Shown piece after piece: positions 40,263 to 57,604 of a stretch of DNA of 64,000 nt; position 1 is the stretch's first letter; each line of letters starts with the position of its first letter. The position numbers and the translations under genes were made by a program. Origin of the DNA: an uncultured Planctomycetia bacterium (GTDB taxonomy: Bacteria > Omnitrophota > Gorgyraeia > Tantalellales > Tantalellaceae); the NCBI GenBank assembly GCA_964572255.1, contig CAZNEE010000001.1, forward strand, positions 203,587 to 267,586, read 5' to 3'. The notes under the pieces are model-generated. The model did no database searches. It was given only the letters and a program-made list of their open reading frames with translations, and had not been told where the DNA came from.

Positions 40263-41176
40263 GGTCACATCTGGCCGACAGGCTCATTGAGGACGGGCAT
40301 CAGGTAATTTGTATGGATAACCTTCTGACGGGGACCATCAGGAACGTATCGCATCTGGCGGGACATCCGCAGTTTGAGTTTATCAAGCAGGATGTCTGTA
40401 AGTACATATTCATAAAAGGAGAGGTGGATTATGTTCTTCATTTCGCATCTCCCGCAAGCCCTATAGATTATCTTGATCATCCCATTAAAACTCTTAAAGT
40501 CGGTTCTTTAGGCACGCATAACGCTTTGGGCCTGGCCAAGGAAAAGAACGCGAAATTTCTTCTGGCTTCCACATCTGAAGTATACGGAGACCCGTTAGTT
40601 AACCCCCAGCCCGAGACATACTGGGGCAATGTCAATCCGGTAGGGCCAAGAGGGGTTTATGATGAAGCAAAACGTTTCGCGGAAGCTATCACACTCGCTT
40701 ATCACAGAACACATGGAGTAGATGCGAAGATAGTCCGCATTTTCAATACATACGGCAGCCGCATGCGTCATCATGACGGAAGGGTAGTACCTGCTTTCAT
40801 TGATGAATGCTTGGATAATGAGCCAATCACGGTCTTCGGCGATGGCTCCCAGACAAGAAGCTTTTGCTACGTATCCGATCTTGTTGAAGGTATAGTGAGA
40901 CTCATGGATTCCGATCTCAATGAGCCTGTAAATATAGGCAATCCCGATGAAATGACCGTTATGAATTTTGCTGAAAAAGTGAAGAAACTTACCGGAAGCA
41001 CGAGTGAGATCATATTTAAAGATCTGCCTGTAAACGACCCCAAGATCAGAAGGCCGGATATCACGAAAGCAAAAAAAGAACTTAACTGGGAACCTAAAGT
41101 GACTCTTGAAGAGGGCTTAAAGAAGACGGTAGAATGGTTCAGAAAAGAAAGAGAAACAGTAAAAGAAGGAAAATAA
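40226..41176 (+). CDS. UDP-glucuronate decarboxylase (UDP-xylose synthase, UXS)
   Basis: [20 protein letters not shown] ... ICMDNLLTG ... TSEVYGDP ... YDEAKR is diagnostic of the UXS/ArnA-decarboxylase subfamily. Confidence 0.8.
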
Positions 41177-41179
41177 CTC

Positions 41180-42163
41180 ATGGCAAAGAAAAAAGCGTTA
41201 ATAACGGGTATAACGGGGCAGGACGGAAGCTATCTTGCGGAATACCTGCTTGAACTCGGGTATGAAGTGCACGGTATGGTTAGGAGAGTTGCTTTAGAGG
41301 ATCAGGCTCATAGATTATCCAGAATACAACATATTTTAGATCGTATTAAACTGCATTGCGGGTCATTGGAAAGTTATCCAAGCATTTTTAAAATAGTTAG
41401 CAAAATTAAACCCGATGAATGCTATCATTTGGCAGCTCAAAGTTTTGTGACTTATTCATTTGAGGATGAATTTTCGACCTTGAATAATAATATAAATGGG
41501 ACACATTTTGTCTTGTCTTCTGTTAATAATGCTGCGCCGGAGTGTAAAGTGTACTTTGCTGCTTCAAGTGAAATGTTTGGCAAGGTTGAAGAAGTGCCAC
41601 AAAAAGAAACTACAAGATTTCATCCCAGGAGCATATACGGGATTTCAAAAGAAGCCGGATTCGAACTAACACGCAATTATCGTGAAGCATATAATGTGTA
41701 TGCATGTAGTGGGATTCTGTTTAATCATGAGTCCCCGAGGAGAGGGTTTGAGTTCGTAACAAGGAAGATCACTTCTACGGCGGCTCAGATAAAGCTGGGT
41801 ATGGCCGATAAACTTTACCTGGGCAATTTAGAAGCTAAAAGGGATTGGGGCCATGCAAAAGAATATGTAAAGGCGATGCATGCGATGCTTCAACAAGACA
41901 AAGCAGATGATTTTGTAATTGGGACAGAAGAGACGCATTCTGTAAAAGAATTTGCCGAAGTGGCTTTTAAAACACTTGATTTAGATTACCGTAAGTATGT
42001 TGAGGTTGATAAAACATTTTATAGACCGGCTGAAGTAGAGTTGTTAATAGCAGACACTTCTAAGGCTAAAAAAGAACTTGGATGGAATTATAAGATAAAA
42101 TTTGAACAATTAGTTGAGGAAATGGTCAAGGCTGACTATGAATACTATAAGGAAAAAATATAA
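41180..42163 (+). CDS. gmd: GDP-mannose 4,6-dehydratase
   Basis: KALITGITGQDGSYLAEYLLELGYEVHGMVRR and YGISKEAG are classic Gmd motifs. Confidence 0.9.
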   Translation: MAKKKALITGITGQDGSYLAEYLLELGYEVHGMVRRVALEDQAHRLSRIQHILDRIKLHCGSLESYPSIFKIVSKIKPDECYHLAAQSFVTYSFEDEFSTLNNNINGTHFVLSSVNNAAPECKVYFAASSEMFGKVEEVPQKETTRFHPRSIYGISKEAGFELTRNYREAYNVYACSGILFNHESPRRGFEFVTRKITSTAAQIKLGMADKLYLGNLEAKRDWGHAKEYVKAMHAMLQQDKADDFVIGTEETHSVKEFAEVAFKTLDLDYRKYVEVDKTFYRPAEVELLIADTSKAKKELGWNYKIKFEQLVEEMVKADYEYYKEKI

Positions 42164-42186
42164 AAATGTTAAATGACGAGGTTTAA

Positions 42187-43326
42187 ATGGTGAAGGGGAC
42201 TAAAATGCAGATACCATTATTGGATCTTAAAGCTCAATATCAGACCATAAAGAATGAAGTCGATGAAGCTATTAAACGTGTAGTTGAAAGCCAGTATTTT
42301 ATTCTGTCTGAAGAAGTTGAGAGGTTAGAAAATGAGGTTGCTGCATATACGGGGGCAAGATCCGGAGCAGGTGTCGCTTCGGGAACGGATGCGCTTATAC
42401 TTGCTCTCCATGCTGTAGGCATTAGAAAAGGCGACAGGGTCATAACTACACCCTTTACTTTTTTTGCGACAGGGGAAGCCATTTCTGTTTTAGGCGCCAT
42501 CCCAACTTTTGTTGACATAGACCCGGGAACTTATAATATCGATCCTGATAAGATAGAGGAATTATTAAAGGGCATGAACGAAAAGGAGCGCAAGGCAATA
42601 AAGGCGATAATCCCGGTACATATTTACGGTCAGTGTGCGGATATGACCCGCATAATGGAGATAGCTAAAAAATATGACCTTAAAGTAATTGAAGACTGTG
42701 CTCAGGCCATAGGCGCATTACACAACGGCAAAAAAGCCGGAAGTTTCGGAGATGCCGGATGCTTAAGCTTTTTCCCGAGCAAAAACCTTGGAGGATTCGG
42801 GGACGGGGGAATGGTGGTTTCCGGCGACCAGGGTTTGACTGACCGCATCAAAAAGCTGCGGGTACATGGAAGCACAAAACAATACATACATGAGGAAATA
42901 GGGTATAATTCCAGGCTTGATAGCCTGCAGGCGGCTGTTCTTAGGGTCAAATTGAAAAAATTGGATGAGTGGCTCCAAGACCGAAGAAATATCGCTAAGA
43001 AATATGATGAAGCGCTTGCGCCGTTAGGGATTATAGTGCCAAAAGTAGCTGAAGGCAATGTTCACACCTATCATCAATACACGATCGCTTTAGAGAAAAG
43101 AGACGGTCTCCTGAAGCATCTTAATGATAACGGCATTGCGGTACGTGTTTATTACCCGGTACCTTTGCATATGCAGCCGTGTTATAAGGACCTGGGTTAT
43201 TCCAAGGGAAGTATACCCATTGCGGAAGAAAGGTCGGAAAAGATCCTTTCCCTGCCTGCTTATTCCGAACTGACCGACGAAAAGGTTGCTTATATAATCG
43301 ATACGGTTAAAGATTTCTTAAAGTAA
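42187..43326 (+). CDS. DegT/DnrJ/EryC1-family PLP aminotransferase (candidate GDP-4-keto-6-deoxymannose 4-aminotransferase / perosamine synthase)
   Basis: IPLLDLKAQY N-terminus. PLP-lysine region FFPSKNLGGFGDGG. Immediately downstream of gmd. Alternative start at ATG 42205. Confidence 0.8.
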   Translation: MVKGTKMQIPLLDLKAQYQTIKNEVDEAIKRVVESQYFILSEEVERLENEVAAYTGARSGAGVASGTDALILALHAVGIRKGDRVITTPFTFFATGEAISVLGAIPTFVDIDPGTYNIDPDKIEELLKGMNEKERKAIKAIIPVHIYGQCADMTRIMEIAKKYDLKVIEDCAQAIGALHNGKKAGSFGDAGCLSFFPSKNLGGFGDGGMVVSGDQGLTDRIKKLRVHGSTKQYIHEEIGYNSRLDSLQAAVLRVKLKKLDEWLQDRRNIAKKYDEALAPLGIIVPKVAEGNVHTYHQYTIALEKRDGLLKHLNDNGIAVRVYYPVPLHMQPCYKDLGYSKGSIPIAEERSEKILSLPAYSELTDEKVAYIIDTVKDFLK

Positions 43327-43339: not shown

Positions 43340-44047
43340 ATGGATCTTTCTATCATAATCCCCGCATATAACGAAGAGAAGCGTTTAGGCCCGACTTTGG
43401 AGAAGATCCGGGCCTTCATGGAGGGCAAGGACACCTCTTATGAGGTAATTGTTGTTGCCGACGGAAGTGAAGACCGTACAAGAGAAGTGGCGGAAGAAAG
43501 CCTTTTGGCGAAAGAAGGACATATTACCACTTTAAAGAACAGAAAAACAAGAGGGAAGGGGTATGCTATTGAAAGAGGTGTGAGGGTAGCTGACGGCGAT
43601 CTAATTCTATTTACGGACGCTGACCTTTCAACTCCGATAGAAGAAATTGATAAATTGATAAGAAGTATCAAAAATGGAGCGGATATCGCTATCGGGTCCA
43701 GATCAATAAATACATCGGAAGTCTTGACCAGACAGCCCTTTTATCGTCAGACCATGGGGAAGGCGTTTAATCTGCTTATTCGTTTAATACTTGGTCAGAA
43801 ATTTAAAGACACCCAATGCGGTTTTAAATTATTCAAAAAGGATACAGCTAAGGTGCTTTTCAAGCAAATAAAAATACCGGGCTTTGCTTTTGACGCGGAG
43901 ATCATCTACCTTGCACTTAGGAACGGCTTTAAAGTAGACGAAGTGGGCGTGAAGTGGTTAAATTCTGCCGAGAGTAAGGTGCATCCCGTTTTTTCTTCTT
44001 TGCAGATGCTGCGTGATGTTATCAGGGTAAGGTTCATTCATAGGTAG
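43340..44047 (+). CDS. GT2 polyprenyl-phosphate glycosyltransferase (DPM1/ArnC/GtrB-like)
   Basis: LSIIIPAYNEE ... VVADGSEDRT ... TDADLS DXD region. 235 aa. Confidence 0.8.
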   Translation: MDLSIIIPAYNEEKRLGPTLEKIRAFMEGKDTSYEVIVVADGSEDRTREVAEESLLAKEGHITTLKNRKTRGKGYAIERGVRVADGDLILFTDADLSTPIEEIDKLIRSIKNGADIAIGSRSINTSEVLTRQPFYRQTMGKAFNLLIRLILGQKFKDTQCGFKLFKKDTAKVLFKQIKIPGFAFDAEIIYLALRNGFKVDEVGVKWLNSAESKVHPVFSSLQMLRDVIRVRFIHR

Positions 44048-44056
44048 AATAAGCAT

Positions 44057-45757
44057 ATGAGATCGATCTTAAAAGGTAATTTTTTACTAGTTATCATTAT
44101 TTTACTCGGGATAGTCCTGAGGATCTGGGGGCTCGGGTTTGGCCTTCCAAATCAATTTCATCAGGATGAGCCGATAGTCGTCAATCATGCGCTTGCTTAC
44201 GGGACAGGCGACCTAAACCCGCATTTTTTTATCATTCCGCCGCTTACTTCTTATATTTTGTTTTTTTTCTACGCTATTTACTTTCTAATGGGATCTCTTA
44301 TCGGCAAGTTCACGGGAGCTGAGTCTTTCGCTTTAAGTTTTTTCAGCGACCCCACATCTTTTTACTTAATGGGCAGATTTCTTATCGGGGTCATTCCGAG
44401 CATATTAAGTGTTTATCTCGTATATCGTTTAGCTTGTAAGTTTTTCTCTAGAGAAGCAGCGGTTTATTCGGCTTTTGTGGCGGCGATTGCGTTCTTAAAT
44501 GTTGTTAATGCGCATTATATTTATACAGACAACCTTTTGGTATTATTTATATTACTTTCGTATATCGCTATGGCAAATCTGATCGAAAGGGGAAGGCTAA
44601 AAGATTATATCTTGTCAGGCATTTTGATAGGGATCGCTACAGCTGTTAAGTATAACGCAGCATTACTCGTCGCGCCTTTTTTCATTTCGCATCTATTGGT
44701 AAATAAAGGAGATAATAGAAATAAACTTTTCGACTCAAAACTTTTTGTTTTTGCCGGAGTCGTGGCGTTAACATTTATCATTTGTAATCCTTATTCTGTT
44801 TTGGACTGGAAGTTTTTCTTAGGTTCCGTTACCGGTAAAATAAGGCATGGATATCTTGGCTGGAGCCATCATATCACATATTCGATGTTCGAAGGGGTAG
44901 GCATTATGCCGACACTTTTAGGAATAATAGGACTTGGAGCTGTTTTGGGGAAAAAGTTCAAAGAAACCTTATTTTTAATATCGTTTCCGGCTGTTTTTTA
45001 TATTCATCTGATCTTTGCCAGCCAGCCGTTTTCAAGATACGTTCTTGTTTTGATTCCTTTTACGGCCATGTATTCGGGATTTTTGCTGTTCGACTACATT
45101 TATCCGAGATCTGAGCGCAAAATCTTAAAATTATCAGTTGTAGCAATTGCGGTTTTAACGATTTTACCGACAACGGTTAAATCCATTAAGGCGGACATGC
45201 TTTTTTCAGGGGAAGATACGCGCGTGATAGCGGCTGACTGGATCAAGGCAAATGTTCCCCCCGGCACTAAGATCGCTTTTGATTCGGTTTTCTTTGCGCC
45301 TGCGGTTAGCCAAACGCTAGAGCAGCTGGAAAGTAAAAGAGAGATCTTAACGAGACAGCCTGAGCTAAAGGGCCTGAAGGGAAGAAAACTGGATCTCCAG
45401 ATCAAAGCTTTCAAGGAAGATAAAACGTACCGGATCTATTATCTCGGGGAAGATACCGAAGTGACCGGACAGTTTTTAAGCTATTGGCCCGCGATTGAAA
45501 GTTCCTCAGCTGACTTGAAAAAATATGAGATAGAATACGTGGTTTTTAATAATATGACCATGTCAGAAAGAATAAAAGATCTGCATAAGGAAATAGCCGA
45601 AAAAATCAAACCGGAAAAGGTGTTCAGCCCATACAAGGATGGGAATTTCAGGCGATCTTACGATGAGACAGCCATGACATGTATTCCCGCCAAAGACAAG
45701 GAGCTGTTTTCAAGAACAAGAACAGGCCCAGCTATTATTATTTACAAGGTAGAATAA
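44057..45757 (+). CDS. GT-C glycosyltransferase, family 39 (ArnT/PMT-like, PMT_2 domain)
   Basis: LRIWGLGFGLPNQFHQDEPIVVNHA N-terminal loop motif. More than 10 TM helices. 566 aa. Confidence 0.75.
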   Translation: MRSILKGNFLLVIIILLGIVLRIWGLGFGLPNQFHQDEPIVVNHALAYGTGDLNPHFFIIPPLTSYILFFFYAIYFLMGSLIGKFTGAESFALSFFSDPTSFYLMGRFLIGVIPSILSVYLVYRLACKFFSREAAVYSAFVAAIAFLNVVNAHYIYTDNLLVLFILLSYIAMANLIERGRLKDYILSGILIGIATAVKYNAALLVAPFFISHLLVNKGDNRNKLFDSKLFVFAGVVALTFIICNPYSVLDWKFFLGSVTGKIRHGYLGWSHHITYSMFEGVGIMPTLLGIIGLGAVLGKKFKETLFLISFPAVFYIHLIFASQPFSRYVLVLIPFTAMYSGFLLFDYIYPRSERKILKLSVVAIAVLTILPTTVKSIKADMLFSGEDTRVIAADWIKANVPPGTKIAFDSVFFAPAVSQTLEQLESKREILTRQPELKGLKGRKLDLQIKAFKEDKTYRIYYLGEDTEVTGQFLSYWPAIESSSADLKKYEIEYVVFNNMTMSERIKDLHKEIAEKIKPEKVFSPYKDGNFRRSYDETAMTCIPAKDKELFSRTRTGPAIIIYKVE

Positions 45758-47922
45758 TGAAGCCTTTTAAGCATTCTGGATTTACATTAGCGTTTTTATT
45801 CACCATAGGTATTTTTCTATTCCCCCTTATATCTATGCGCGCGTCTTTTATCTATGGCGATAATCTCGTTCAATTTTACCCCTGGTTCAAGATCTACGCT
45901 GATTCAATAAAGCACCTGCAGCTTCCTTTCTGGACAACCTTTATGCAGAGCGGATTTCCCTTAATGGCCGAAGGGCAGGTAGGCGGATGGTATCCGTTAA
46001 ATATGCTGATGTTCTTCCTGCTTCCCTTTAGAATAGCTTACAATTATTCAATCATCCTGCATTTTATCTTGGGAGGGGTTTTTACATACTTTTATTCACG
46101 CAGGGTAGGGGCAGATGAGGCAGGCGGATATCTTGCGGCGCTTCTTTTTTGCTTTGGAAGTGCTTACGCCGGGTGTTTTTACAATATCATAACCTTAAGA
46201 ACCCTTGCGTGGTTTCCGCTTGTTCTTTTGCTGTTTGAAATATATTTGGATAAACGCAAAATATCCTACATGTTTTTAGCGGGATTAGTAGCGGGGTTCC
46301 AGCTATTGGCGGGATTCATCCAGGTTGCGGCATACAGCGTATTGTTTTATTTAGCGTATTTTATTTATACGTCAAGCTTGAGAAAAATAGATGCCGCAAA
46401 AACACTATTTTCAACCGGCACCTTTCTTTTAACGGCTTTTATTGTTTCCCTGCCGCAGCTTATGCTCACCTTTCAGCTGGCTAACCTATCGAGCAGGGAA
46501 GGGGCGACTTTGGGTTTCGCTTTATGGGGGTCTCTTTCTCCGATCAAACTTTTGGGTACGGTATTTCCGTATTTTGTTTTAAAAGGGACGACTTTTTATA
46601 TAGGGATATTCAGTCTCCTTCTTCTGATAACATCGTTTTACAGCATGAGATCCGATCTCAAGATGCGGCCTTTATTAATGGTATTTTTACTTTCATTTTT
46701 TCTCGCCTTAGGGAAGTATAATCCATTATATTTCTTAGCATTGAAAATAACCCGCTTTTACAGTTTCCGTAATCCGTCAAAGTTCCTGTTCTTCGGCATG
46801 TTTGCGGCATCAGTATTGGCGGGGACAGGGCTTACACGGTTTTTTCGCAGTGATTTTCAAAACAAAAGACCGATCCGGATCTTCAAAGCATTCCTTATCG
46901 CAATGGCGGGCATATTTTTCGCTTTCAAGGCAATAATATTAATATTTGGCGGGAAGCTTATAAAATTCGGGAAGTGGTACGCGATTAATTATATTTACGG
47001 GAAGGATTTTCACAGGCACAGCCTCCAAACATACATGGAAAAGGTCGAGAGTTTTTATGCGGGCCTGGTCCAGAAATCCTCGATCCTGAATCCCTTCATT
47101 TTGACTTCGATCGGCCTGTGTATTATAGCGTTAATTTTTTGCGGATATATTTTACGGAAGAAAAAACCCGCTCCGATCTTCAAGGGCATACTTGTTCTAA
47201 TAATATTTTTGGATCTTTTTGTTTACAGTTTTTACGGGACGGGATTTAGGGGTAATATCCGGAATTTTAATGAGTTAGGACCGGCATATCCTCTTTTATA
47301 TAAAATTGTCGCTAATGATAAGGAGATTTTCAGGATCCTGCCTTATGATGTAGCTTCGGGTAAACTGCCTAACTGGGCGATGCCTAATTCAAATGCTATA
47401 TGGAATATTGACAGTGTCGCGGCTTATTCGCCGCTGGTCTCCGAGAAATACTATAAAAAGTTAAACGGATTGGAAGCCGTCGATAATTCCCTTGGCTTAT
47501 TGACGCCTTCTGAAGGAGCTTTTAGGGATAAGTGGGAAATTTTACGCCTTTTGAACGTGAAATATGTGGTTTCTTCGGAAGAAATTAAAGAACATTTTTT
47601 TGAACGGAACTGGAAAGAAAAAGATATATATATGTATTCACTGAAAAATGCCCTGCCGAGGGGATACGTAATAGCGCACTTACAGGAGCCCTTAAGATTC
47701 ATCGACAAAGATCCAAAGATCACGGAATATAGATCAGGTTATGCAAAGTTCTCACTCGACATAAGAGAAAACGCTTATTTAGTGTTCTCGGAATTCAATT
47801 ATCCGGGTTGGAAAGCGGCAATTGACGGAAAAAAGGCGAAGATCGAGAGCTTTCAAGACATTTTAATGGCAGTGCATGTTCCGAAAGGCGAACACGAAGT
47901 TGAATTTAAATACACCCGTTAA
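45757..47922 (+). CDS. YfhO-family GT-C membrane glycosyltransferase
   Basis: Start ATG shares its A with the upstream TAA (TAATG). N-terminal region IYGDNLVQFYPWFKIYADSIKHLQLPFWTTFMQSGFPLMAEGQVGGWYP is typical of YfhO. The track ORF extends spuriously to 45679. Confidence 0.75.
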   Translation: MKPFKHSGFTLAFLFTIGIFLFPLISMRASFIYGDNLVQFYPWFKIYADSIKHLQLPFWTTFMQSGFPLMAEGQVGGWYPLNMLMFFLLPFRIAYNYSIILHFILGGVFTYFYSRRVGADEAGGYLAALLFCFGSAYAGCFYNIITLRTLAWFPLVLLLFEIYLDKRKISYMFLAGLVAGFQLLAGFIQVAAYSVLFYLAYFIYTSSLRKIDAAKTLFSTGTFLLTAFIVSLPQLMLTFQLANLSSREGATLGFALWGSLSPIKLLGTVFPYFVLKGTTFYIGIFSLLLLITSFYSMRSDLKMRPLLMVFLLSFFLALGKYNPLYFLALKITRFYSFRNPSKFLFFGMFAASVLAGTGLTRFFRSDFQNKRPIRIFKAFLIAMAGIFFAFKAIILIFGGKLIKFGKWYAINYIYGKDFHRHSLQTYMEKVESFYAGLVQKSSILNPFILTSIGLCIIALIFCGYILRKKKPAPIFKGILVLIIFLDLFVYSFYGTGFRGNIRNFNELGPAYPLLYKIVANDKEIFRILPYDVASGKLPNWAMPNSNAIWNIDSVAAYSPLVSEKYYKKLNGLEAVDNSLGLLTPSEGAFRDKWEILRLLNVKYVVSSEEIKEHFFERNWKEKDIYMYSLKNALPRGYVIAHLQEPLRFIDKDPKITEYRSGYAKFSLDIRENAYLVFSEFNYPGWKAAIDGKKAKIESFQDILMAVHVPKGEHEVEFKYTR

Positions 47923-49573
47923 AAATTATACAGTTCTTTTTCTTCTCGTAGTTATATTTATTTCTCTCGCGCTGACAAGTGCCGTCAGAAAATCCCCGGT
48001 TTCAGATGAAGCTGCCCATCATATTCCTGTGGGTTACGTTTTTCTGACTAAAGGAGATTTCGCCTTCGCGACAGATTCTCCGCCCCTGGCAAGGATCCTC
48101 GCGGCTTTGCCGCTTCTTTCATTGGATGTAAAACTTCCGGATGAGAGGTCTTTTTGGGCGAGGGAAGACAGGGCGGAATTTTCCCGAGATTTTTTATATA
48201 AACTGAACAGGAGTATTTTCGATAAGATCCTTTTATTTGCCCGCATACCGATGATGATTTTAGGTGTGTTTGGAGGGGTTTTCCTCTTTTTCTGGGTCAG
48301 GAAGCATTATGATTCCCAGGTCGCGGTCTTAACGGCTATTTTTTATTTTCTTTCACCGAACATACTGGCGCATTCAAGGTTTGCAACGACGGATATAGCG
48401 GCCTCTGTTTTTATTATGTGTTCGGTTCTTTCTTTCTGGGATTTCTTGATATCGAGAAGGAATATAGAAGCTTTAATATCGGGAATATTTCTGGCCCTGG
48501 CGATGATGGCAAAGTACTCAGCGTTATTACTTTTGCCGATTTATATTATTTTGGTGCTGGGTACAATCTTAAATGAGAGATTCTTTAAGGGGAAGAGAGT
48601 TTCCTTAGATTTTTTCTTCAAACTCCTTTTTTGCTTATTTATCTCTGCTTTAGTTTTGTGGTCCGGATATGCCTTTGAATTTAAACCGTTCCTTAAAGAT
48701 GTATTGAGACCGGAAAGTAAGATCGTTGTTTTCACTGATATGTTAAACTCGATCCCTTTTGCTGGTGAAGGATTCAAGGCTAAAGCTGTTGAATTTCTTT
48801 ATACAGCTTCCGTTCCACTTGGTTCTTTTGTCTTGGGTGTTATAGGTGTCCTCAAACATGCCGCTGAAGGGGTTGGTATCTTTTTCATGGGCGCGTGGAG
48901 ACATCAAGGGCATCCGTTGTATTACGTGGCAGCATTTCTATTGAAGACGCCGATTCCGGTTATAATCTTCTTCTTTATCGGGCTGATTTTTGCCGCGAGG
49001 AATAAATCTCTAAATTTGTACTTACTGCTGATGATCTTCAGCTTTTTTGTATTTGCGTCCAGGTCGAACCTGCAACTGGGATTAAGGTATGTATTGCCGG
49101 TTTACCCGTTTATTTTTATCATTTCAGCTTTGGGGGCTAAGTATGTTTTTAATAAAGGAACTGTGTATAAAACATTCGGGATAGTTCTTATCTTGTGGTT
49201 TTTGACAGTTCCGTTTTTCATATGGCCGGATTATCTTAGCTATTTCAATGAATCAATAGGAGGCCCTGATAACGGGCATAAATATCTCAGGGATTCAAAT
49301 ATTGACTGGGGGCAGGATCTGCCTGCTTTAAAACAATACATGCTTGAGAATAATATTGAATCCGTAAAATTAGCTTATTTTGGGGAAGGCGACCCCACGT
49401 ATTATGGTATAAGATCAGAGGATATCACTGAAATCGAGCTGATAGAACCTGAAAAAGAAGTTTATGCGATAAGTATCCGGCATATAGACAGTTGCAGATG
49501 GACTAAAGATAAAAAACCTGATTCAAAAGCGGGTTATTCGATATTTATTTACGATTTGAGGGAAAAAGAATAA
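47876..49573 (+). CDS. GT-C glycosyltransferase, family 39 (ArnT/PMT-like) paralog
   Basis: DEAAHHIPVGYVFLTKGDFAFATDSPPLARIL is the family-39 first-loop motif. 47-nt overlap with the YfhO gene, so the start is uncertain. Confidence 0.7.
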   Translation: MFRKANTKLNLNTPVKNYTVLFLLVVIFISLALTSAVRKSPVSDEAAHHIPVGYVFLTKGDFAFATDSPPLARILAALPLLSLDVKLPDERSFWAREDRAEFSRDFLYKLNRSIFDKILLFARIPMMILGVFGGVFLFFWVRKHYDSQVAVLTAIFYFLSPNILAHSRFATTDIAASVFIMCSVLSFWDFLISRRNIEALISGIFLALAMMAKYSALLLLPIYIILVLGTILNERFFKGKRVSLDFFFKLLFCLFISALVLWSGYAFEFKPFLKDVLRPESKIVVFTDMLNSIPFAGEGFKAKAVEFLYTASVPLGSFVLGVIGVLKHAAEGVGIFFMGAWRHQGHPLYYVAAFLLKTPIPVIIFFFIGLIFAARNKSLNLYLLLMIFSFFVFASRSNLQLGLRYVLPVYPFIFIISALGAKYVFNKGTVYKTFGIVLILWFLTVPFFIWPDYLSYFNESIGGPDNGHKYLRDSNIDWGQDLPALKQYMLENNIESVKLAYFGEGDPTYYGIRSEDITEIELIEPEKEVYAISIRHIDSCRWTKDKKPDSKAGYSIFIYDLREKE

Positions 49574-49585
49574 AATAATAAAACT

Positions 49586-50320
49586 ATGGCTGAAGATATT
49601 TTTCTATCGATAATCATACCGGCTTATAACGAAGAAGCGAATATAGTAAATACGCTTACGGAGATAGCGGATTTTTTGGATGGCAAAGCTTTTTCAAGTG
49701 AGGTAATTTTAATAGATGACGGTTCAAAAGACAGGACCTTGGAAGAGGCACTTATTTTCGAGGAAAAAATACCCAATTTTCGCATTATTGAAAGTAAGCC
49801 CAATAAAGGCAAAGGTTATGTAGTTAAAAAGGCCATGCTCCAGGCACGGGGAAAATATGCGATGTTCATGGATGCCGATAATTCGACTTCCATAGATGAG
49901 ATTGATAAATTTTTCCCATACCTTGAAGAAGGATATGACGCGGTAATAGGTTCAAGAAGATTAAAAGATTCACAAGTGACCGTTCCCGAATCATTCATGA
50001 GGATCCTATTGGGAAATGTTTATATATTATTATCAAAGATCATTCTTGGCTCAAAGGTAAATGATTTTAACTGCGGGTTTAAGGCCTATAAGGGGGAGTC
50101 GGCGAAGAGGATCTTTTCCCTGCAAAAGATGGATGATTGGAGCTTTGATACGGAGCTTATATTCTTGATCAATAAGCTTGGAATGAAGCTGAAAGAGGTG
50201 CCCGTAAAGTGGGCTCACAAAAACACTTCGAAGGTAAAGCCTTTTAAAGCCGGAGTAGAATCTTTTCTAAGCCTTATTAAGATCAAGTGGAATGATATTA
50301 AAGGGATCTATGAAAAATAA
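49586..50320 (+). CDS. GT2 polyprenyl-phosphate glycosyltransferase (DPM1/ArnC/GtrB-like) paralog
   Basis: LSIIIPAYNEE ... LIDDGSKDRT ... MDADNS. 244 aa. Confidence 0.8.
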   Translation: MAEDIFLSIIIPAYNEEANIVNTLTEIADFLDGKAFSSEVILIDDGSKDRTLEEALIFEEKIPNFRIIESKPNKGKGYVVKKAMLQARGKYAMFMDADNSTSIDEIDKFFPYLEEGYDAVIGSRRLKDSQVTVPESFMRILLGNVYILLSKIILGSKVNDFNCGFKAYKGESAKRIFSLQKMDDWSFDTELIFLINKLGMKLKEVPVKWAHKNTSKVKPFKAGVESFLSLIKIKWNDIKGIYEK

Positions 50321-50444
50321 ATACCGTTTTATAGAGATTTTATTCTTGATCTGGTTTGTTTTCATCTTTTTGACGTATGCCGGATCTTTTATTGCTCCTA
50401 AAATTTCTGAGAACTTACCAAAGATCCAAAATATATTGAAATAA
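50310..50444 (+). CDS. Unannotated 44-aa single-TM mini-protein (MKNKYRFIEILFLIWFVFIFLTYAGSFIAPKISENLPKIQNILK) between GT2 and GT-C genes
   Basis: ATG overlaps the last codons of the GT2 gene (ctATGaaaaaTAA). AAAGGGA RBS lies 5 nt upstream. Its stop is 1 nt before the ATG of the downstream GT-C gene, which itself lacks an SD (translational coupling). It is below the 60-aa cutoff of the ORF track. Confidence 0.4.
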   Translation: MKNKYRFIEILFLIWFVFIFLTYAGSFIAPKISENLPKIQNILK

Positions 50445-50445
50445 A

Positions 50446-52209
50446 ATGTCTGATTTTGTCCTTCTCATACTGATATCCTTCATTGCTTATGGTGTCGGAG
50501 ACTTCATTGCCAGATCAATGAAGATAAGATCCTCCAGGCTTGAAAATTTCGTATTTTCAACAGGTTTAGGCCTGGGGATCATAGCTTATATCGTATTTAT
50601 TTTAGGGCAAGCCGGGCTTGTATATTTCAAAATCCTAATAATCACTTTGTGTGTGCTTTTCGCTTTGTTCTTTAAAAACATTCTTTTACTTATAAAGGAT
50701 CTATATTCTTACGTAAAGAACATCAAAATAGGGGACTGGTCACTTTTTGATAAAATACTACTAGCGGTGTTAACTCTGGCGTTTGTTTTCAGCTTAGCAG
50801 GCGCTCTAGCTCCGCCCATCGGCAACGATGCCCTGGCATATCATTTAATCCATCCAAAGATCTTTATAAAAACGCATTCTGTAAGTTTTATTCCGTACAC
50901 ACGAGAGTCCTTATGGCCTTATCTGACCGAGATGCTTTTTACTTTAGGGATGCTTCTGGAAAATTCCATTTTGGCCAAGTTGTTCCATTATTTGTTCGGG
51001 GTGCTTGCTGCAATAGCTGTTTATTGTTTCGCCAGGAGATTTGTTAATAGAAAAGCCGGACTACTTTCAGCCGCCTTGTTTTATTTATCCCCGGGTATAT
51101 TCATGCAGGCAAGTTATGCTTACGTTGATCTATCTTTATGCTTTTATGTTTTTTGTGCGTTCTATCTTTTTCTTTCATGGATAACCGATAGAGAGATCCA
51201 ATATTTGGTATTTTCAGGCATTCTATTTGGACTGGCACTGTCAGTGAAGATTCTGGCAGCTATTGGGCTTATTCCCGTACTGGTGCTTCTGCTTTATGTT
51301 TTAGTAAAAGAGAAAAACCTTATAAAAACTTATATTTCACACCTTTCGGCTTTCCTGATCCCTTTGTTTTTATTCAGCTTTATATGGTATTTGAGGAGCT
51401 ATTTAATAACAGGGAACCCGGTATATCCGTTCATGCATGAAGTTTTCGGCAGTGGATGGTCCGCAGCGCACATAGCTGAAAGTTACGGCTATATGAAAGG
51501 GCCTATAGGCTTATTAAGGCTTCCTTGGGATCTTGTTATGCATATGGAGAGTTTCGGCGGGGAACAAATAGGGTTTTTATTCCTTGCTCTTCTTCCGGCA
51601 TTGATATTTACAAGGTGGGGGAACAGATCAAGGCGTTTTATGGCATTTTTCATGATAATTTATATGGCACTGTGGTTCAAGATAGATCAGAACATCCGGT
51701 TTCTTTTTCCTGTGTTTCCGGTAGCTTTTGTGCTTATCTCTGACGGATTGGATCAAATATTCATAAAAAGGAACTTTAAACTTTTAAAGACTTTCATTTC
51801 AATAGGGCTGGTATTCAATCTAAGCTTAGCTTTTTACTACAATGTAGGTCCGATCAAAATTCTTACCGGACGCATAAGTGAAGATGAATACCTGCTCAAA
51901 AAAGAAAGGACTTATGCTGTTTCTAAGTGGGTTAACTCTAATGTCAGTAAAGATTCCTTATTAATATTGGCAGGCGAAACCCGGGAATACTATTTTGACC
52001 CACATGTAATCAAATATAAGCGCATGACAAATACCAAAAAAACCTTCCAGGAGATAACTGCCCCCTATAAAAGCGTTTATATTTTATGCAAAGATGACAC
52101 CATGGATGAATCTGTTAAAAAGCTTATATATGCTAAAAAACCCCTTTTTACCTCATCATTTACAGAAGATGGCATAAAAAGTACCTATTCCATATACAAG
52201 CTCAGATGA
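50446..52209 (+). CDS. Polytopic membrane protein, putative GT-C-superfamily glycosyltransferase (family unassigned)
   Basis: 587 aa with about 12 TM helices and a C-terminal soluble domain. It sits downstream of a DPM1-like GT2, as in ArnC/ArnT-type pairs. No diagnostic motif was recognised. Confidence 0.5.
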   Translation: MSDFVLLILISFIAYGVGDFIARSMKIRSSRLENFVFSTGLGLGIIAYIVFILGQAGLVYFKILIITLCVLFALFFKNILLLIKDLYSYVKNIKIGDWSLFDKILLAVLTLAFVFSLAGALAPPIGNDALAYHLIHPKIFIKTHSVSFIPYTRESLWPYLTEMLFTLGMLLENSILAKLFHYLFGVLAAIAVYCFARRFVNRKAGLLSAALFYLSPGIFMQASYAYVDLSLCFYVFCAFYLFLSWITDREIQYLVFSGILFGLALSVKILAAIGLIPVLVLLLYVLVKEKNLIKTYISHLSAFLIPLFLFSFIWYLRSYLITGNPVYPFMHEVFGSGWSAAHIAESYGYMKGPIGLLRLPWDLVMHMESFGGEQIGFLFLALLPALIFTRWGNRSRRFMAFFMIIYMALWFKIDQNIRFLFPVFPVAFVLISDGLDQIFIKRNFKLLKTFISIGLVFNLSLAFYYNVGPIKILTGRISEDEYLLKKERTYAVSKWVNSNVSKDSLLILAGETREYYFDPHVIKYKRMTNTKKTFQEITAPYKSVYILCKDDTMDESVKKLIYAKKPLFTSSFTEDGIKSTYSIYKLR

Positions 52210-52352: not shown

Positions 52353-52592
52353 GTGGAAATTAAAGAAAATGCTGTCTACACAAGAGAGGAATCCCAGGAG
52401 CTTCTAAAGGTGAGCCAAAGCACGATGATGCGCCTTATTAAAAAAGGCATTATCCAGGCTGCCAAGGTAGGGAAGCAGTATAGAATAATGGGCAAAGAGC
52501 TCTTGAGGGTAGTTTCGCCTGAATTAGAGGACAAGGTCGGCAAAGTGTATAACAAGGGCCGACATTGGCTTCATGAAGGCATAGACGAATAA
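52353..52592 (+). CDS. Excisionase/AlpA/MerR-type helix-turn-helix DNA-binding protein (HTH_17)
   Basis: GTG start with GGAGG RBS. YTREESQELLKVSQSTMMRLIKKGIIQAAKVGKQYRI is the canonical excisionase-family HTH. Confidence 0.7.
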   Translation: MEIKENAVYTREESQELLKVSQSTMMRLIKKGIIQAAKVGKQYRIMGKELLRVVSPELEDKVGKVYNKGRHWLHEGIDE

Positions 52593-52615: not shown

Positions 52616-53653
52616 ATGCAGGATATATTCAAAGACAAAGTTATTCTCATTACCGGAGGAACAGGATCTTTCGGGAAAAAATTCACAGAAATAATCCTTT
52701 CAAAATTCAAACCCAAAAAGCTTATCATATTCAGCAGAGACGAAATGAAACAATATGAGATGCGGCAAAAGTTTAAAGAAAAAAATATAAGGTTTTTTAT
52801 TGGTGATGTAAGGGATGCCGATAGGTTACATAGAGCCTTTAGCGGCGTTGATTATGTCATTCACGCTGCTGCGCTTAAGATTGTACCTGCTGCTGAATAT
52901 AATCCGTTTGAAGCTGTAAAAACCAATGTTATTGGAGGTGAAAACGTTATCAATTTGGCCATAGATAATGGTGTAAAAAAAGTAATAGCTTTGAGTACGG
53001 ACAAGGCAGCCAATCCGATTAATCTTTATGGAGCTACGAAACTTTGTGCTGAAAAGATGTTTATAGCTGCCAATAACTATTCTCCCCGCGGGACTCACTT
53101 TAGTGTTGTTCGATATGGAAATGTTTTTGGATCTCGTGGCAGTGTAGTTCCTTTCTTTAAAGAATGCAGAAAAAAGGGAGAGGTTCCTATAACTGATGAG
53201 AGGATGACAAGATTTTGGATAACACTCGAACAAGGAGTTAATTTCGTACTTCAATGTTTGGAAGAGATGAAGGGAGGAGAAATTTTTATTCCTAAAATAC
53301 CAAGCATGAGAGTAACAGATTTAGCTCAAGCCATATGCCCAAACTGTAAACAGAAGACAATAGGTATCAGGGCTGGTGAAAAATTACATGAAACTTTGGT
53401 TCCGGAAGATGATGGTATTCATACATATGAGTATGAAGATAAATTTGTTACATATCCTTATGTTGTAGAACATCTGGGAGCAAAGGATGGAGGATCTCCA
53501 TTATCTTCAGACTTTGAAGGATATAGGAGTGACAACAACACTGATTGGCTTTCAGTGAAAAATTTGCAAGAGATGGCAGGGACAGAAGAAGAAAATAAAA
53601 CGAAGGATAAGGCCCATGAAGAATATACCTTACGGTCGGCAACTAATAGATAA
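52616..53653 (+). CDS. pseB: UDP-GlcNAc 4,6-dehydratase/5-epimerase PseB (FlmA/CapD-like)
   Basis: VILITGGTGSFGKKF, YGATKLCAEK and the short-form CapD architecture. First gene of the pse set. Confidence 0.85.
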   Translation: MQDIFKDKVILITGGTGSFGKKFTEIILSKFKPKKLIIFSRDEMKQYEMRQKFKEKNIRFFIGDVRDADRLHRAFSGVDYVIHAAALKIVPAAEYNPFEAVKTNVIGGENVINLAIDNGVKKVIALSTDKAANPINLYGATKLCAEKMFIAANNYSPRGTHFSVVRYGNVFGSRGSVVPFFKECRKKGEVPITDERMTRFWITLEQGVNFVLQCLEEMKGGEIFIPKIPSMRVTDLAQAICPNCKQKTIGIRAGEKLHETLVPEDDGIHTYEYEDKFVTYPYVVEHLGAKDGGSPLSSDFEGYRSDNNTDWLSVKNLQEMAGTEEENKTKDKAHEEYTLRSATNR

Positions 53654-54779
53654 GGATGATATAAGAGCTGCAGTAGAGGTTCTGAAGTCAGACTGGATTA
53701 CACAGGGGCCAAAAATAAAAGAATTCGAAGATGCTCTTACCAGGTACTGTGGAGCGAAATATGCTGTAGCTGTTTCGAGTGGCACCGCAGCTCTTCACAT
53801 TGCTTGTTTAGCTGCGGGATTGAAAGAACAGGGAGAAGCTATTACCACACCCATAACATTTCTTGCAACTGCCAATTCTATTATATATTCAGGAGCAAAA
53901 CCTGTCTTTGCTGATATAAATTATGCAACAGTTAATATCGATCCAAAAGAGATTAAGAAAAAGATAACCAAAAAAACCAAAGCGATTTTGCCTGTGCATT
54001 TTGCTGGTTTGCCATGCGATATGTCAGAAATCCATAAAATTGCTAAGGACAATAATCTAACTATTATTGAAGATGGTTGTCATGCCTTTGGAGCAGAGTA
54101 TAGGAGTAAGGGCAAGTGGGTTAAAATCGGAAGCTGTAGGTATTCTGATATGACTGTTTTCAGTTTTCATCCTGTTAAACATATTACAACAGGTGAAGGC
54201 GGAGCGATAACTACAAATAACAGGAAAATATACGAAAAACTGTTAGCTTTGCGTTCACACGGTACTTATAAAACTCAGGAGATGATAGAGGGCAAGGGAC
54301 TATGGTATTACGAGATGAGGGATCTAGGATTTAATTACAGAATAACAGATATTCAGTGTGCTATAGGATTATCACAAATTAGAAAAATAGATGATCTTAT
54401 CCAGAAAAGACTGAGGATTGCAGAAATTTATGATAAAGAATTTGGGTCTATAGATGGCGTTGAGATTCCTAGAGTAAATAAAGATAAAAAGCATACTTAC
54501 CACCTCTATTTACTTAAGATAGATTTCGATAAATTGAAAACAAGCAGAAAGAAGTTTGTATCTCTTTTGAAGAAGAAAGGAATTTTTACTCAAGTACATT
54601 ATATTCCGATATACAAACAGCCTTATTATAAGAAGAGGTACAAGGTTAATTCTAAGAATTTTAAAAATAGCGAGAAATATTACAAAAAAGCGTTATCTAT
54701 CCCGATTTATTCAAAAATGACTGATTCTGAAGTTAAGAGGGTTGTATCAAACATAAAGGAACTATTGAATGGAAATTAA
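53616..54779 (+). CDS. pseC: UDP-4-amino-4,6-dideoxy-N-acetyl-beta-L-altrosamine transaminase PseC
   Basis: IPYGRQLIDKDDIRAAVEVLKSDWITQGPKIKEFE is the characteristic PseC N-terminus. DegT family. Confidence 0.85.
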   Translation: MKNIPYGRQLIDKDDIRAAVEVLKSDWITQGPKIKEFEDALTRYCGAKYAVAVSSGTAALHIACLAAGLKEQGEAITTPITFLATANSIIYSGAKPVFADINYATVNIDPKEIKKKITKKTKAILPVHFAGLPCDMSEIHKIAKDNNLTIIEDGCHAFGAEYRSKGKWVKIGSCRYSDMTVFSFHPVKHITTGEGGAITTNNRKIYEKLLALRSHGTYKTQEMIEGKGLWYYEMRDLGFNYRITDIQCAIGLSQIRKIDDLIQKRLRIAEIYDKEFGSIDGVEIPRVNKDKKHTYHLYLLKIDFDKLKTSRKKFVSLLKKKGIFTQVHYIPIYKQPYYKKRYKVNSKNFKNSEKYYKKALSIPIYSKMTDSEVKRVVSNIKELLNGN

Positions 54780-55530
54780 AGCAGAAGGGTCAAAAAATAT
54801 TGTTGCAATTATTCAGGCACGTATGGGTTCTACACGCCTGCCGGGAAAAGTGTTAATGGATATAAGCGGCAAATCCATGTTATGGCATGTAGTGAACCGC
54901 CTCAAGAGAAGTGAAATAATTAATAACATTGTTGTTGCTACAAGTGTTAAAAAGGAAGATGACGTTATTGAAAATCATTGCAGGCAACATGGCATTGATT
55001 TTTACAGAGGCAGCGAGGAAGATGTTCTTGATAGGTACTATCAGGCTGCTAAGACCTATAAGGCAGATGTTGTGGTACGAATTACAGCGGATTGCCCTTT
55101 AATCGATCCGAATGTTGTAGACAAAATAATTTGCAAGCATTTAGATAACATGAGTAATTCTGATGGCTCAAGCAATGCAATAGATCGTACATTTCCAAGA
55201 GGACTTGATACAGAAGTGATGAAGATGTCTGTTTTAGAACAGATGTGGGAGAGAGCTCAGGAGGACTATCAAAGAGAACATGTCACTCCTTATTTATATG
55301 AACATCCTGAGAAATTTGAAGTATTAAGTGTAAAAGATGACAGAAATTTATCAAATTTGCGTTGGACTGTAGACGAAGAAAGAGACCTAGCATTTATAAG
55401 AGAAATTTATAAGAGGCTGTATAAGCAGAAGGATATATTTTTATTAGATGATATTTTGAAACTGCTGGAAATCGAACCTAACCTAAGAGAGATAAACAAG
55501 GATGTAAGACAAAAGATAATTAATAATTGA
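54769..55530 (+). CDS. pseF: Pseudaminic acid cytidylyltransferase PseF (CMP-NeuAc-synthetase family)
   Basis: IVAIIQARMGSTRLPGKVL. CMP-sugar synthetase fold. Confidence 0.85.
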   Translation: MEIKAEGSKNIVAIIQARMGSTRLPGKVLMDISGKSMLWHVVNRLKRSEIINNIVVATSVKKEDDVIENHCRQHGIDFYRGSEEDVLDRYYQAAKTYKADVVVRITADCPLIDPNVVDKIICKHLDNMSNSDGSSNAIDRTFPRGLDTEVMKMSVLEQMWERAQEDYQREHVTPYLYEHPEKFEVLSVKDDRNLSNLRWTVDEERDLAFIREIYKRLYKQKDIFLLDDILKLLEIEPNLREINKDVRQKIINN

Positions 55531-55580
55531 ATTCAAGAAAATAGTATAGAGATCAGTTTTAGTATTTAAAAGGAGAAAAA

Positions 55581-56567
55581 ATGTTAAAAGAAAACGAAAT
55601 AAGACCTGCGGAATTAAGAAAAAAATCTTGCGAACTTTTCGAACAAGATGCGAGAGAATTACTCGCCTTTGGAGATAAATTTGTTGAGATTAACTGTCCT
55701 GCTTGTGGGACCGATAATAATTCAGTTTATTTTGTAAAAAATGGTTATAAATTTAAAAAGTGCCAAACATGCAGATCCCTTTATATATCTCCTAGACCAA
55801 CAGTAGAACTACTTGAGAACTATTATACCAATTCTAGGGCTTCAAAATTCTGGCAGGAAAAAGTTTTTAAAGTATCAAAAGAGGCAAGAATCGAAAAAAT
55901 ACATAAACCTAGGGTTGATATGGTTCTAGAATATGTAAAAAAATACAACATTGATACAGATCTATTATTAGAGGTAGGTGCAGGTTCAGGTTTTTTTGGC
56001 TTAGAGTTAAATAAGAGAAAAATATTTAAGAAAATAGTTTTAGTTGAGCCAGCTCCTATCGAATTCGAACAAAATGAATCAATTGTCCTCATAAATGATG
56101 TTGTAGAAAATGTTAAATTAAAAGAAAAACCCAATGTAGTCGTAAGTTTTGAATTGATAGAACATATATTTTCTCCTTATGAATTCCTGAAAAGTGTATA
56201 TGAGTTAATGCCTGAAAATTCTTTTATAATATTGACTACTCCTAACATAGAGGGTTTTGAGTTATTGACTATAGGAGAGAAATCTTCAAACATCGGTGGC
56301 CCAAGCCATTTAAATTATTTTAACACTACTTCAATTAATATATTGCTTCAAAAAGTGGGATTTAAACCTGTTTTAGTAGACACCCCTGGTGAACTTGATG
56401 CAGATATAGTTATAAATAAACATTTAGAAGGCGGGCTAGATATTTCAAATCAGCCATTTTTGAATCATATTCTTATTGAAAATGCCGATAAACATCTTGA
56501 ACGTTTCCAGAAATTTCTTCAAGAATCAAAACTATCTTCTCACATGCTTGTAGTGGCTAGAAAATAA
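55581..56567 (+). CDS. Class I SAM-dependent methyltransferase with N-terminal Cys4 zinc ribbon (sugar C/O-methyltransferase-like)
   Basis: CPACGTDNN ... CQTCRSLY zinc ribbon. LLEVGAGSGFFGLEL motif I. Confidence 0.65.
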   Translation: MLKENEIRPAELRKKSCELFEQDARELLAFGDKFVEINCPACGTDNNSVYFVKNGYKFKKCQTCRSLYISPRPTVELLENYYTNSRASKFWQEKVFKVSKEARIEKIHKPRVDMVLEYVKKYNIDTDLLLEVGAGSGFFGLELNKRKIFKKIVLVEPAPIEFEQNESIVLINDVVENVKLKEKPNVVVSFELIEHIFSPYEFLKSVYELMPENSFIILTTPNIEGFELLTIGEKSSNIGGPSHLNYFNTTSINILLQKVGFKPVLVDTPGELDADIVINKHLEGGLDISNQPFLNHILIENADKHLERFQKFLQESKLSSHMLVVARK

Positions 56568-56610
56568 GAATAAATACAGTTAATTCTTGATTTGGAGGAA
56601 GAAAGAAATT

Positions 56611-57603: not shown

Positions 57604-57604
57604 A

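Follow-up and report, generated by a model that had tools for sequence, protein, structure and literature searches.

Loading of a sugar onto a lipid carrier in the cytoplasm, flipping of the lipid-linked sugar and its transfer in the periplasm by a GT-C glycosyltransferase constitute the established behavior of the GT2 and GT-C families concerned (PMC8035078). The genes analyzed here belong to these families and lie at positions 43340–52209 of a 64-kb stretch of contig CAZNEE010000001.1 (the window), where six tightly packed open reading frames (ORFs) on the + strand encode two short GT2 and four polytopic GT-C proteins. The source of the window is Candidatus Omnitrophota. With a probability of roughly 0.72, the locus encodes a lipid-linked periplasmic glycosylation system in which DPM1-type GT2 enzymes and four GT-C enzymes decorate an envelope acceptor, the leading guess being the lipid A-inner core of lipopolysaccharide (LPS). 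The core of the locus is composed of the following genes:

43340..44047, + strand: GT2a, 235 amino acids, short GT2 of the polyprenyl-phosphate sugar synthase type without transmembrane (TM) helices
44057..45757, + strand: PMTa, 566 amino acids, GT-C with ~11 TM helices and a conserved C-terminal periplasmic domain
45757..47922, + strand: YfhO-like GT-C, 721 amino acids, with a C-terminal β-sandwich domain
47876..49573, + strand: PMTb, 565 amino acids, GT-C (557 amino acids from an alternative start at 47900)
49586..50320, + strand: GT2b, 244 amino acids, second short GT2 of the polyprenyl-phosphate sugar synthase type
50292 or 50310..50444, + strand: micro-ORF, 44–50 amino acids, one TM helix, absent from public annotation
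50446..52209, + strand: PMTc, 587 amino acids, GT-C with four additional N-terminal helices ahead of the catalytic loop

In multi-component transmembrane systems such as CsbB/GtcA/YfhO, GtlA/GtlB, GacI/J/K/L and GtrA/B/C, a GT2 synthase is paired with a PMT_2- or YfhO-type GT-C enzyme, a conserved acidic motif is present in an extracytoplasmic loop and some of the GT-C members carry a C-terminal putative carbohydrate-binding domain (PMC8035078). The Omnitrophota locus is similar in these respects, and its micro-ORF could parallel the arrangement of GacI/GacJ, in which a GT-A enzyme without TM helices may need a small membrane partner (PMC8035078). It differs in its diderm candidate-phylum host, where the acceptor cannot be teichoic acid, and in the presence of four tandem GT-C genes and two synthases, with no GtrA or Wzx nearby; characterized YfhO proteins are linked to it by distant sequence similarity only. 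The Rgt system of Rhizobium and Mesorhizobium (the bactoprenyl-phosphate-galacturonic acid synthase RgtE with RgtA, B, C, D, and F) is a diderm precedent, with one GT2 and a set of GT-C enzymes that modify lipid A and core (PMC7663294, PMC4402001). The decoration of core and lipid A by RgtE with RgtA-D and F is described by Brown et al. (2012), as cited in PMC9393093. There, a set of ArnT-like GT-C enzymes draws on a single donor lipid to decorate one conserved acceptor region, and the UDP-galacturonic acid (UDP-GalA) genes of the system, UDP-Glc dehydrogenase and epimerase, have likely counterparts at 36284–38562 of the window. The likeness drawn here is one of gene content. Whereas the rgt genes are dispersed over the genome, the Omnitrophota locus forms one gene block, and it differs further in having two synthases and a YfhO-type member.

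In the Arn pathway, the order arnB-arnC...arnT is mirrored by the aminotransferase-GT2-PMT_2 GT-C order at 42187–45757, ArnT is the top structural match of the modeled GT-C proteins and ArnC ranks second among the solved relatives of GT2a. A true Arn pathway was nevertheless rejected: the aminotransferase scored 184 bits against the NCBIfam ArnB cutoff of 631 and GT2a 80 bits against the ArnC cutoff of 529, the decarboxylase is UXS-type and not ArnA-type, and no ArnA formyltransferase, ArnD-type deformylase or EamA/SMR flippase (ArnE/F) is present in the window. The Pgf operon of Streptococcus mutans (PgfS, PgfE, PgfM1, and PgfM2), together with GtrB/PgtC2, also joins a GT2 synthase to enzymes that modify sugars and to at least two YfhO-type GT-C enzymes (PMC12041528). 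These differ in their Gram-positive host and in the acceptor adhesins encoded in the Pgf-type cluster, none of which is evident in the locus, where PMT_2-type enzymes outnumber the YfhO-type. The mycobacterial emb/aft genes (EmbC-EmbA-EmbB, AftA) are likewise tandem GT-C genes working on a lipid-linked monosaccharide donor, decaprenyl-phosphate-arabinose. Emb proteins, in contrast, are ~1,050 amino acids long with distinct C-terminal carbohydrate-binding modules, their donor is derived from a phosphoribosyltransferase route instead of a DPM1-type GT2, and no sequence-level relationship to the locus was seen, Emb/Aft being found among the fold matches. Going by the curated cutoffs missed and the partners absent, the locus is no orthologue of Arn, Gtr or CsbB/YfhO.

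The Omnitrophota are a widespread phylum of ultra-small bacteria that have not been cultured. Many of them are thought to be attached to or to prey on other cells, and we know of no work on their envelope glycans. Literature searches turned up no account of the locus in Omnitrophota; the main genomic survey of the phylum contained no LPS or glycosylation terms, and a complete-genome preprint contained only generic LPS/capsule glycosyltransferases. Public pipelines already label the proteins "glycosyltransferase family 39," "ArnT family," and "YfhO family." The mechanism proposed is familiar, extending a well-known scheme and overturning nothing. What is new is the arrangement, i.e., a tandem GT-C triad or tetrad across Omnitrophota, synthases without TM helices, a conserved micro-peptide and a fixed linkage to nonulosonic-acid genes.

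GT2 and GT-C enzymes of the locus

An earlier note, made from the sequence of the window, had described two GT2 and four GT-C genes at 43340–52209, and all six were confirmed at these coordinates, on the + strand. GT2a and GT2b are paralogues with 40% identity and matched Pfam Glycos_transf_2 with 109 and 97 bits, respectively. The best relatives of GT2a in the PDB were the dolichyl-phosphate mannose synthase (DPMS) of P. furiosus (95 bits), ArnC (70 bits), and GtrB (50 bits), other GT2s scoring ≤33 bits. The DxD motif is conserved in both, as D93-A-D95 in GT2a (at least 95% across 16 orthologues) and as D96-A-D98 in GT2b. GT2a is without a hydrophobic segment, and the C-terminal membrane helices known from ArnC/GtrB are missing from both GT2 proteins; their alignments to the short dolichyl-P-hexose transferase and PpgS models of NCBIfam run end to end, below cutoff. 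Judged by sequence, GT2a and GT2b belong to the DPM1/ArnC/GtrB/PpgS clade of polyprenyl-phosphate sugar synthases and are of the short DPM1/Ppm1/PpgS type. The earlier designation "ArnC/DPM1-like" is therefore apt for the synthase type, DPMS, ArnC, and GtrB being the nearest structures, but not for an ArnC-like build, as the C-terminal membrane helices are missing.

Family profiles and predicted structures had been proposed as checks on the four large membrane proteins. With the Pfam PMT_2 profile (PF13231, gathering cutoff 26.1), PMTa, PMTb, and PMTc scored 66.5, 46.7, and 49.5 bits, respectively, and the fourth protein passed the YfhO profile. The assignment of the genes at 44057 and 47876 as GT39/PMT-like was thus upheld, and that at 50446, left unassigned earlier, could be placed in PMT_2. 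All three also exceeded the cutoff of Pfam PMT (PF02366). AlphaFold2 models were built from homologue alignments for the YfhO-like protein (pLDDT 86, pTM 0.87) and PMTc (pLDDT 92.6, pTM 0.94), and both showed a GT-C fold. Foldseek ranked ArnT first for each: the YfhO-like model matched ArnT (5f15, E 1e-5), followed by EmbA/B/C, STT3, AftA, PglB, and AftD, and the PMTc model matched ArnT (E 2e-8), followed by ALG12, ALG9, STT3, PglB, and Pmt4. At E ≤ 1e-3, both models matched GT-C structures only, and transporters appeared only at E > 0.1 with a probability below 0.1. The fold was established from the models since sequence searches of the PDB were uninformative; single-sequence searches with the four proteins returned nothing at E ≤ 1, and profile searches (E ≤ 1) gave no match for PMTc and weak unrelated matches only for the YfhO-like protein.

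PMTa and PMTb were connected to PMTc by profile comparison, with hhalign probabilities of 99.1% for PMTa-PMTc, 98.8% for PMTb-PMTc, and 98.5% for PMTa-PMTb, at a sequence identity of ~23–29% over 74–101 residues. PMTc and the YfhO-like protein aligned at 93.5%, with D128 of the former placed on D35 of the latter. An Asp directly after the first core helix is conserved by at least 95% across the orthologues of each protein, i.e., D37 (followed by E38) in PMTa, D35 in the YfhO-like protein, D44 in PMTb, and D128 in PMTc, and a D-E pair follows TM1 in both PMTa and PMTb. Other residues conserved to this degree include H35-Q-D37-E38-P39, D158, and K198 in PMTa and H48, H49, D173, and K213 in PMTb besides D44; D128, K268, and R418 are invariant in PMTc, as are D35 and E72 in the YfhO-like protein. 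The positively charged N-termini and the order of the helices suggest that the conserved Asp faces the periplasm in the first loop. All four large membrane proteins are members of the GT-C superfamily, as predicted from the models for the YfhO-like protein and PMTc and from profile homology to PMTc for PMTa and PMTb.

The YfhO profile (PF09586, cutoff 28.5) gave 41.3 bits with the protein encoded at 45757, aligning residues 651–720 with positions 754–824 of the 835 in the profile, so that the match comprises the last 70 residues, in the C-terminal β-sandwich, only. The family was matched by 23 of 31 orthologues (best E 1e-21). The start is the one given earlier. The score above cutoff and the GT-C fold would suit the earlier label, which is nonetheless weaker than it appears given the C-terminal match, and the protein is probably a distant YfhO relative. 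A 747-amino-acid ORF from 45679 was rejected as the artefact of an upstream in-frame ATG, as the records contain the 721-amino-acid product alone and the alignments of homologues begin at residue 1. The wider family comprises 49,290 cluster representatives at E ≤ 1e-3, and the occurrence of YfhO in a diderm next to LptD is less surprising than had been thought. The C-terminal β-sandwich is reminiscent of carbohydrate-binding modules.

Recurrence of the gene set and the micro-ORF in Omnitrophota

Full-length homologues at 42–63% identity number more than 290 for the YfhO-like protein and more than 250 for PMTa, and those with a named source were all from Candidatus Omnitrophota except for one partial PMTa homologue from Margulisiibacteriota. 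A scan of GTDB species genomes yielded 27 loci, of which all but two were labeled Omnitrophota or "uncultured Planctomycetia"; the two exceptions, one Nitrospinia and one Gottesmanbacteria, are each 27% identical. Five of the related loci (L012, L016, L021, L022, and L028) are from third-party-annotated metagenome-assembled genomes titled "uncultured Planctomycetia bacterium," with 45–57% identity in the YfhO-like protein. This title, on assemblies with an Omnitrophota-type locus, is probably a taxonomic mislabel. Proteins identical to the products of the locus are also present on metagenome contigs as long as 527 kb.

Gene clusters were counted in 16 related Omnitrophota loci flanked on both sides by 3 kb or more of sequence, and gene order was derived from BLAST of the relatives' ORFs against the window proteins. 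Three to five GT-C and one to four GT2 genes were clustered in 16 of 16 loci, showing that the grouping is not due to chance, and nonulosonic-acid genes followed downstream in 15. The recurring order is GT2a, PMTa, YfhO, PMTb, optionally GT2b and PMTc, then a helix-turn-helix (HTH) gene and the nonulosonic-acid genes; in the window, the PMTa, YfhO-like, and PMTb genes are translationally coupled. The relatives vary in the presence of additional GT2/PMT_2 pairs, of a GT87 gene, and of genes for GNAT or aminotransferase proteins. L009, for instance, has an added GT87/MptA-family GT-C gene at 4822–6225, and L010 encodes a fused SDR-DegT protein of 725 amino acids at 2960–5137. As extra modules come and go, the locus consists of a conserved core and variable modules and behaves like an array to which GT2/GT-C modules can be added. 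The conservation of the PMTa-YfhO-PMTb triad, including its periplasmic domains, at ~40–63% argues for a conserved acceptor. The interval 43340–52209 indicated earlier is thus the core, but the system is larger, having nucleotide-sugar genes upstream, while the micro-ORF, the HTH gene and the pseudaminic-acid pathway travel along with it. A GT-C-rich locus in every related Omnitrophota locus examined, together with a variable pseudaminic-acid module, offers a concrete handle on surface chemistry, with enzymes for heterologous expression and conserved catalytic residues for mutation.

The 125 nt separating GT2b from PMTc accommodate an ORF of 44–50 amino acids with one hydrophobic helix. Its probable start is M7 (50310), giving ~44 amino acids; it overlaps the 3′ end of GT2b, and its stop is 1 nt ahead of the PMTc start codon. 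Public gene calls leave it out, and a Pfam search with its product gave no match. By tblastn, it was detected in nine other loci (E 7e-9 to 0.01). In five of these, it occupies precisely the interval from the preceding gene to PMTc, and overlaps of 4 nt occur in four of the five:

L017:12521–12655, L030:6054–6161, L024:8915–9025, L018:13702–13872, and L019:13815–13937: micro-ORF counterparts of 35–56 amino acids

Residues W15 and Y23 are invariant, and P30 is nearly so. The product is probably a small membrane subunit of the machinery; by analogy with DPM3-DPM1 and GacJ-GacI, it could be the partner of PMTc or PMTb or a tether for a GT2 without TM helices. It may represent a new type of subunit for GT-C or DPM1-like machinery.

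Proposed route, acceptor and alternative explanations

The proposed route builds on the family and fold of the six enzymes, their conserved catalytic-type residues, the co-directional overlapping genes and the conservation in related Omnitrophota loci. At the cytoplasmic face, soluble or peripheral GT2a and GT2b would, as is typical of their family, move single sugars from nucleotide sugars, supplied by the genes just upstream, to polyprenyl phosphate. The lipid-linked monosaccharides would then be flipped by a protein encoded outside the window. At the periplasmic face, PMTa, the YfhO-like protein, PMTb, and PMTc would transfer the sugars to one or more extracytoplasmic acceptors, presumably through the conserved Asp of the first periplasmic loop. 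The use of a polyprenyl-phosphate-linked donor by the GT-C enzymes is likely from their co-location with DPM1-type GT2 genes in all 16 loci. The main proposal of the earlier note, polyprenyl-phosphate-sugar synthases with several GT-C enzymes carrying out periplasmic transfer, is in agreement with the GT2 relatives, the predicted GT-C fold and the conserved Asp. Its description as an ArnC/ArnT or GtrB/GtrC pair multiplied fourfold holds for the periplasmic decoration type, but two donor synthases for four transferases do not amount to fourfold pairs. The genes that could supply the sugars form a string with the GT-C genes, beginning 8 nt after lptD (31486–33672):

33681..36287, + strand: RmlA-like nucleotidyltransferase, dTDP-glucose 4,6-dehydratase and RmlD-type reductase (Pfam NTP_transferase, RmlD_sub_bind)
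36284..38562, + strand: UDP-glucose dehydrogenase (three UDPG_MGDP_dh domains) and SDR epimerase
38568..40262, + strand: NodU/CmcH-type carbamoyltransferase (Carbam_trans_N 264 bits, Carbam_trans_C 253 bits)
40226..41176, + strand: UDP-glucuronate decarboxylase (UDP-xylose synthase; 389 bits, E 1e-115 to human UXS1, 4gll and 2b69)
41180..43326, + strand: GDP-mannose 4,6-dehydratase (NCBIfam gmd 386 bits, below the 415 cutoff) and DegT-family sugar aminotransferase

The first group, with dTDP_gluc_dehyt of NCBIfam at 442 bits (cutoff 365), is predicted to serve in nucleotide-sugar supply. The SDR epimerase, whose best NCBIfam match was TviC (243 bits, below cutoff), is probably a UDP-GlcA/GlcNAcA 4-epimerase, and the pair at 36284..38562 is a possible source of UDP-GlcA or UDP-GalA. 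The carbamoyltransferase probably carries out sugar O-carbamoylation and has orthologues upstream of the GT-C block in L013, L014, L018, and L021. In the PDB, the aminotransferase was nearest to 7b0d, QdtB, and WbpE (378–286 bits), ahead of perosamine synthase (192) and ArnB (133). GDP-perosamine was considered as a donor and found unsupported, the enzyme being nearer to QdtB/WbpE than to perosamine synthase.

The lipid A-inner core of LPS is slightly favored as acceptor, by analogy with Rhizobium RgtE/RgtA-D and ArnC/ArnT. Three observations point toward it, namely, ArnT as top structural match of both predicted models, the start of the sugar/GT-C gene string 8 nt after lptD, and the UDP-Glc dehydrogenase and epimerase, which could give UDP-GalA as in Rgt. 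Several results weigh against this reading. Neither GT2 reaches an NCBIfam equivalog cutoff that would fix the donor sugar (for example, 79.6 vs. 529, 74.5 vs. 375, and 53.4 vs. 370 bits), the aminotransferase is not an ArnB orthologue and resembles C3-aminotransferases more than perosamine synthase, and TM-scores of both models to ArnT are only 0.44–0.57. None of the four GT-C proteins matched the NCBIfam ArnT model, and the Arn partners are also absent from the window; the proteins do not count as ArnT (GT83). Besides the source, a metagenome scan for adjacency to lptD yielded only a single close relative, 72% identical, in which the adjacency recurs; in distant loci lptD would lie outside the 10-kb flanks. 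No flippase (GtrA, ArnE/F, or Wzx) was found in the 64-kb window, and the acceptors known for YfhO-family enzymes are teichoic acids or proteins and not LPS (PMC8035078, PMC12041528).

O-glycosylation of surface proteins ranks close behind. Here the GT-C enzymes would move polyprenyl-phosphate-linked sugars to Ser/Thr of exported proteins such as pilins, adhesins or the giant surface proteins that Omnitrophota typically have, on the model of actinobacterial Pmt or of streptococcal GtrB/PgtC2 or PgfS/PgfM1/PgfM2. We regard this as possible, though somewhat doubtful. All three PMT_2 proteins pass the PMT (PF02366) cutoff, but PMT_2 is broad and includes ArnT-like lipid A transferases, and Pmt structures rank under ArnT, ALG, and STT3 in the fold searches. 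The D-E pair after TM1 of PMTa and PMTb, with its conserved Asp, would fit, as would the matches of GT2a and GT2b to the PgfS model (63 and 59 bits, both sub-cutoff) and the absence of glycan-polymer assembly genes from the window. The earlier note had linked YfhO to Gram-positive teichoic acid glycosylation; this association stands, but the YfhO-family enzymes PgtC2 and PgfM1 also O-glycosylate proteins, in Ser/Thr-rich regions, and in the Pgf operon a single GT2 is joined by two YfhO-type GT-C enzymes (PMC12041528). Against this, the locus contains no gene for a candidate acceptor protein. In a further alternative, the four GT-C enzymes would act sequentially on one acceptor and assemble a glycan chain stepwise in the periplasm, replacing a Wzx/Wzy route, as mycobacterial Emb/Aft/Mpt enzymes build arabinan and mannan. 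Four transferases exceed two donor synthases, the strong divergence of the PMT_2 paralogues suggests distinct acceptor specificities, and the fold searches also matched Emb, AftA, and AftD. The added GT87/MptA-family gene of L009 and the likeness of the YfhO-like β-sandwich to carbohydrate-binding modules also agree with a chain. There is, however, no sign of processivity or of a polymer. Stepwise assembly seems unlikely, and it overlaps the other readings, as the primer could be LPS or protein; the three are not mutually exclusive. As had been noted earlier, Wzx, Wzy, and WaaL are missing: no domains of these, of GtrA or of a priming phosphoglycosyltransferase were found in window ORFs of at least 150 amino acids or in intergenic small ORFs. 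This absence covers 64 kb, but L008 has a Wzx-like gene near the block.

It is very improbable that the large membrane proteins are transporters, polymerases or ligases rather than glycosyltransferases. The restriction of the YfhO match to 70 C-terminal residues and the lack of relevant hits in PDB sequence searches speak weakly for such a function. On the other side, every Foldseek match at E ≤ 1e-3 is a GT-C enzyme, PMT_2 scores are above cutoff and the catalytic-loop Asp is kept by all four. The earlier note would have taken a lack of catalytic-loop signatures as a sign of transporters or polymerases; the GT-C identity survives and the fold and motif results effectively refute the alternative. 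A more speculative elaboration of the glycosylation scheme, which we consider rather improbable, is that the PMTa-YfhO-PMTb triad, the synthases without TM helices and the ~44-amino-acid peptide form a phylum-specific machine building a conserved surface glycan or glycoprotein coat from lipid-linked monosaccharides wholly in the periplasm, in place of the Wzx/Wzy/WaaL O-antigen route, with capping or extension by the variable pseudaminic-acid module. If true, such a machine could be a defining trait of the Omnitrophota envelope and would be relevant to epibiotic or predatory attachment.

Neighboring genes

The block downstream of PMTc is arranged as follows:

52353..52592, + strand: HTH_17 (excisionase/MamR-like) DNA-binding protein, 79 amino acids (HTH_17 41.7 bits)
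52616..61320, + strand: pseudaminic-acid pathway with PseB, PseC, cytidylyltransferase, methyltransferases, PseG, WbqC, PIG-L, GNAT, and PseI
61337–63247, + strand: soluble protein of 636 amino acids directly after PseI
63244–64000, + strand: sulfotransferase, running past the end of the window

The HTH_17 protein shows weak similarity to MamR (43.5 bits) and is possibly the regulator of the locus. Its gene lies at the junction of the GT-C and nonulosonic-acid genes, and the same gene, of 79–80 amino acids, is found there in L008, L009, and L010. NCBIfam equivalog cutoffs were exceeded by PseB (503 bits, cutoff 408), PseC (496, 424), PseG (157.7, 153.6), and PseI (477, 340), and the genes at 52616–61320 are accordingly predicted to be a bona fide, complete pseudaminic-acid pathway. 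The two methyltransferases, WbqC, the PIG-L deacetylase and the GNAT protein suggest a modified pseudaminic acid. G+C content drops from ~0.42 to ~0.33 at the junction of the GT-C and pseudaminic-acid genes, as in variable surface-glycan islands. The 636-amino-acid protein, which had no match in Pfam, NCBIfam, or PDB, might at a guess be a candidate nonulosonic-acid (pseudaminic-acid) transferase. The contigs recovered for the region downstream end ~3.4 and ~2.4 kb beyond its gene. In L008, a 641-amino-acid gene product with a weak Glyphos_transf match is encoded at a similar spot in the nonulosonic-acid block.

GtrA (PF04138) gave no match among the window's ORFs, large and small alike, and none is listed for the called genes of L008–L010. 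A polytopic ORF of 122 amino acids (24972–25340, + strand), the only small polytopic protein, was considered as a GtrA-type flippase and rejected as VanZ-like (47.8 bits). MatE and PelG genes lie 36–40 kb away from the locus, and the Wzx-type gene of L008 (Polysacc_synt) is ~10 kb downstream. The + strand carries all 56 window ORFs of at least 150 amino acids, and each 2-kb bin shows a positive GC skew; so complete a strand bias across 64 kb is unusual. Two GGDEF proteins are encoded at 28652–31455, immediately before lptD. Pel-type exopolysaccharide genes occupy 9–5151 (+ strand) and code for TPR and HEAT-repeat proteins, a PelF-like GT4 (DUF3492 with Glycos_transf_1) and PelG; they are followed by a GGDEF response regulator at 5263.

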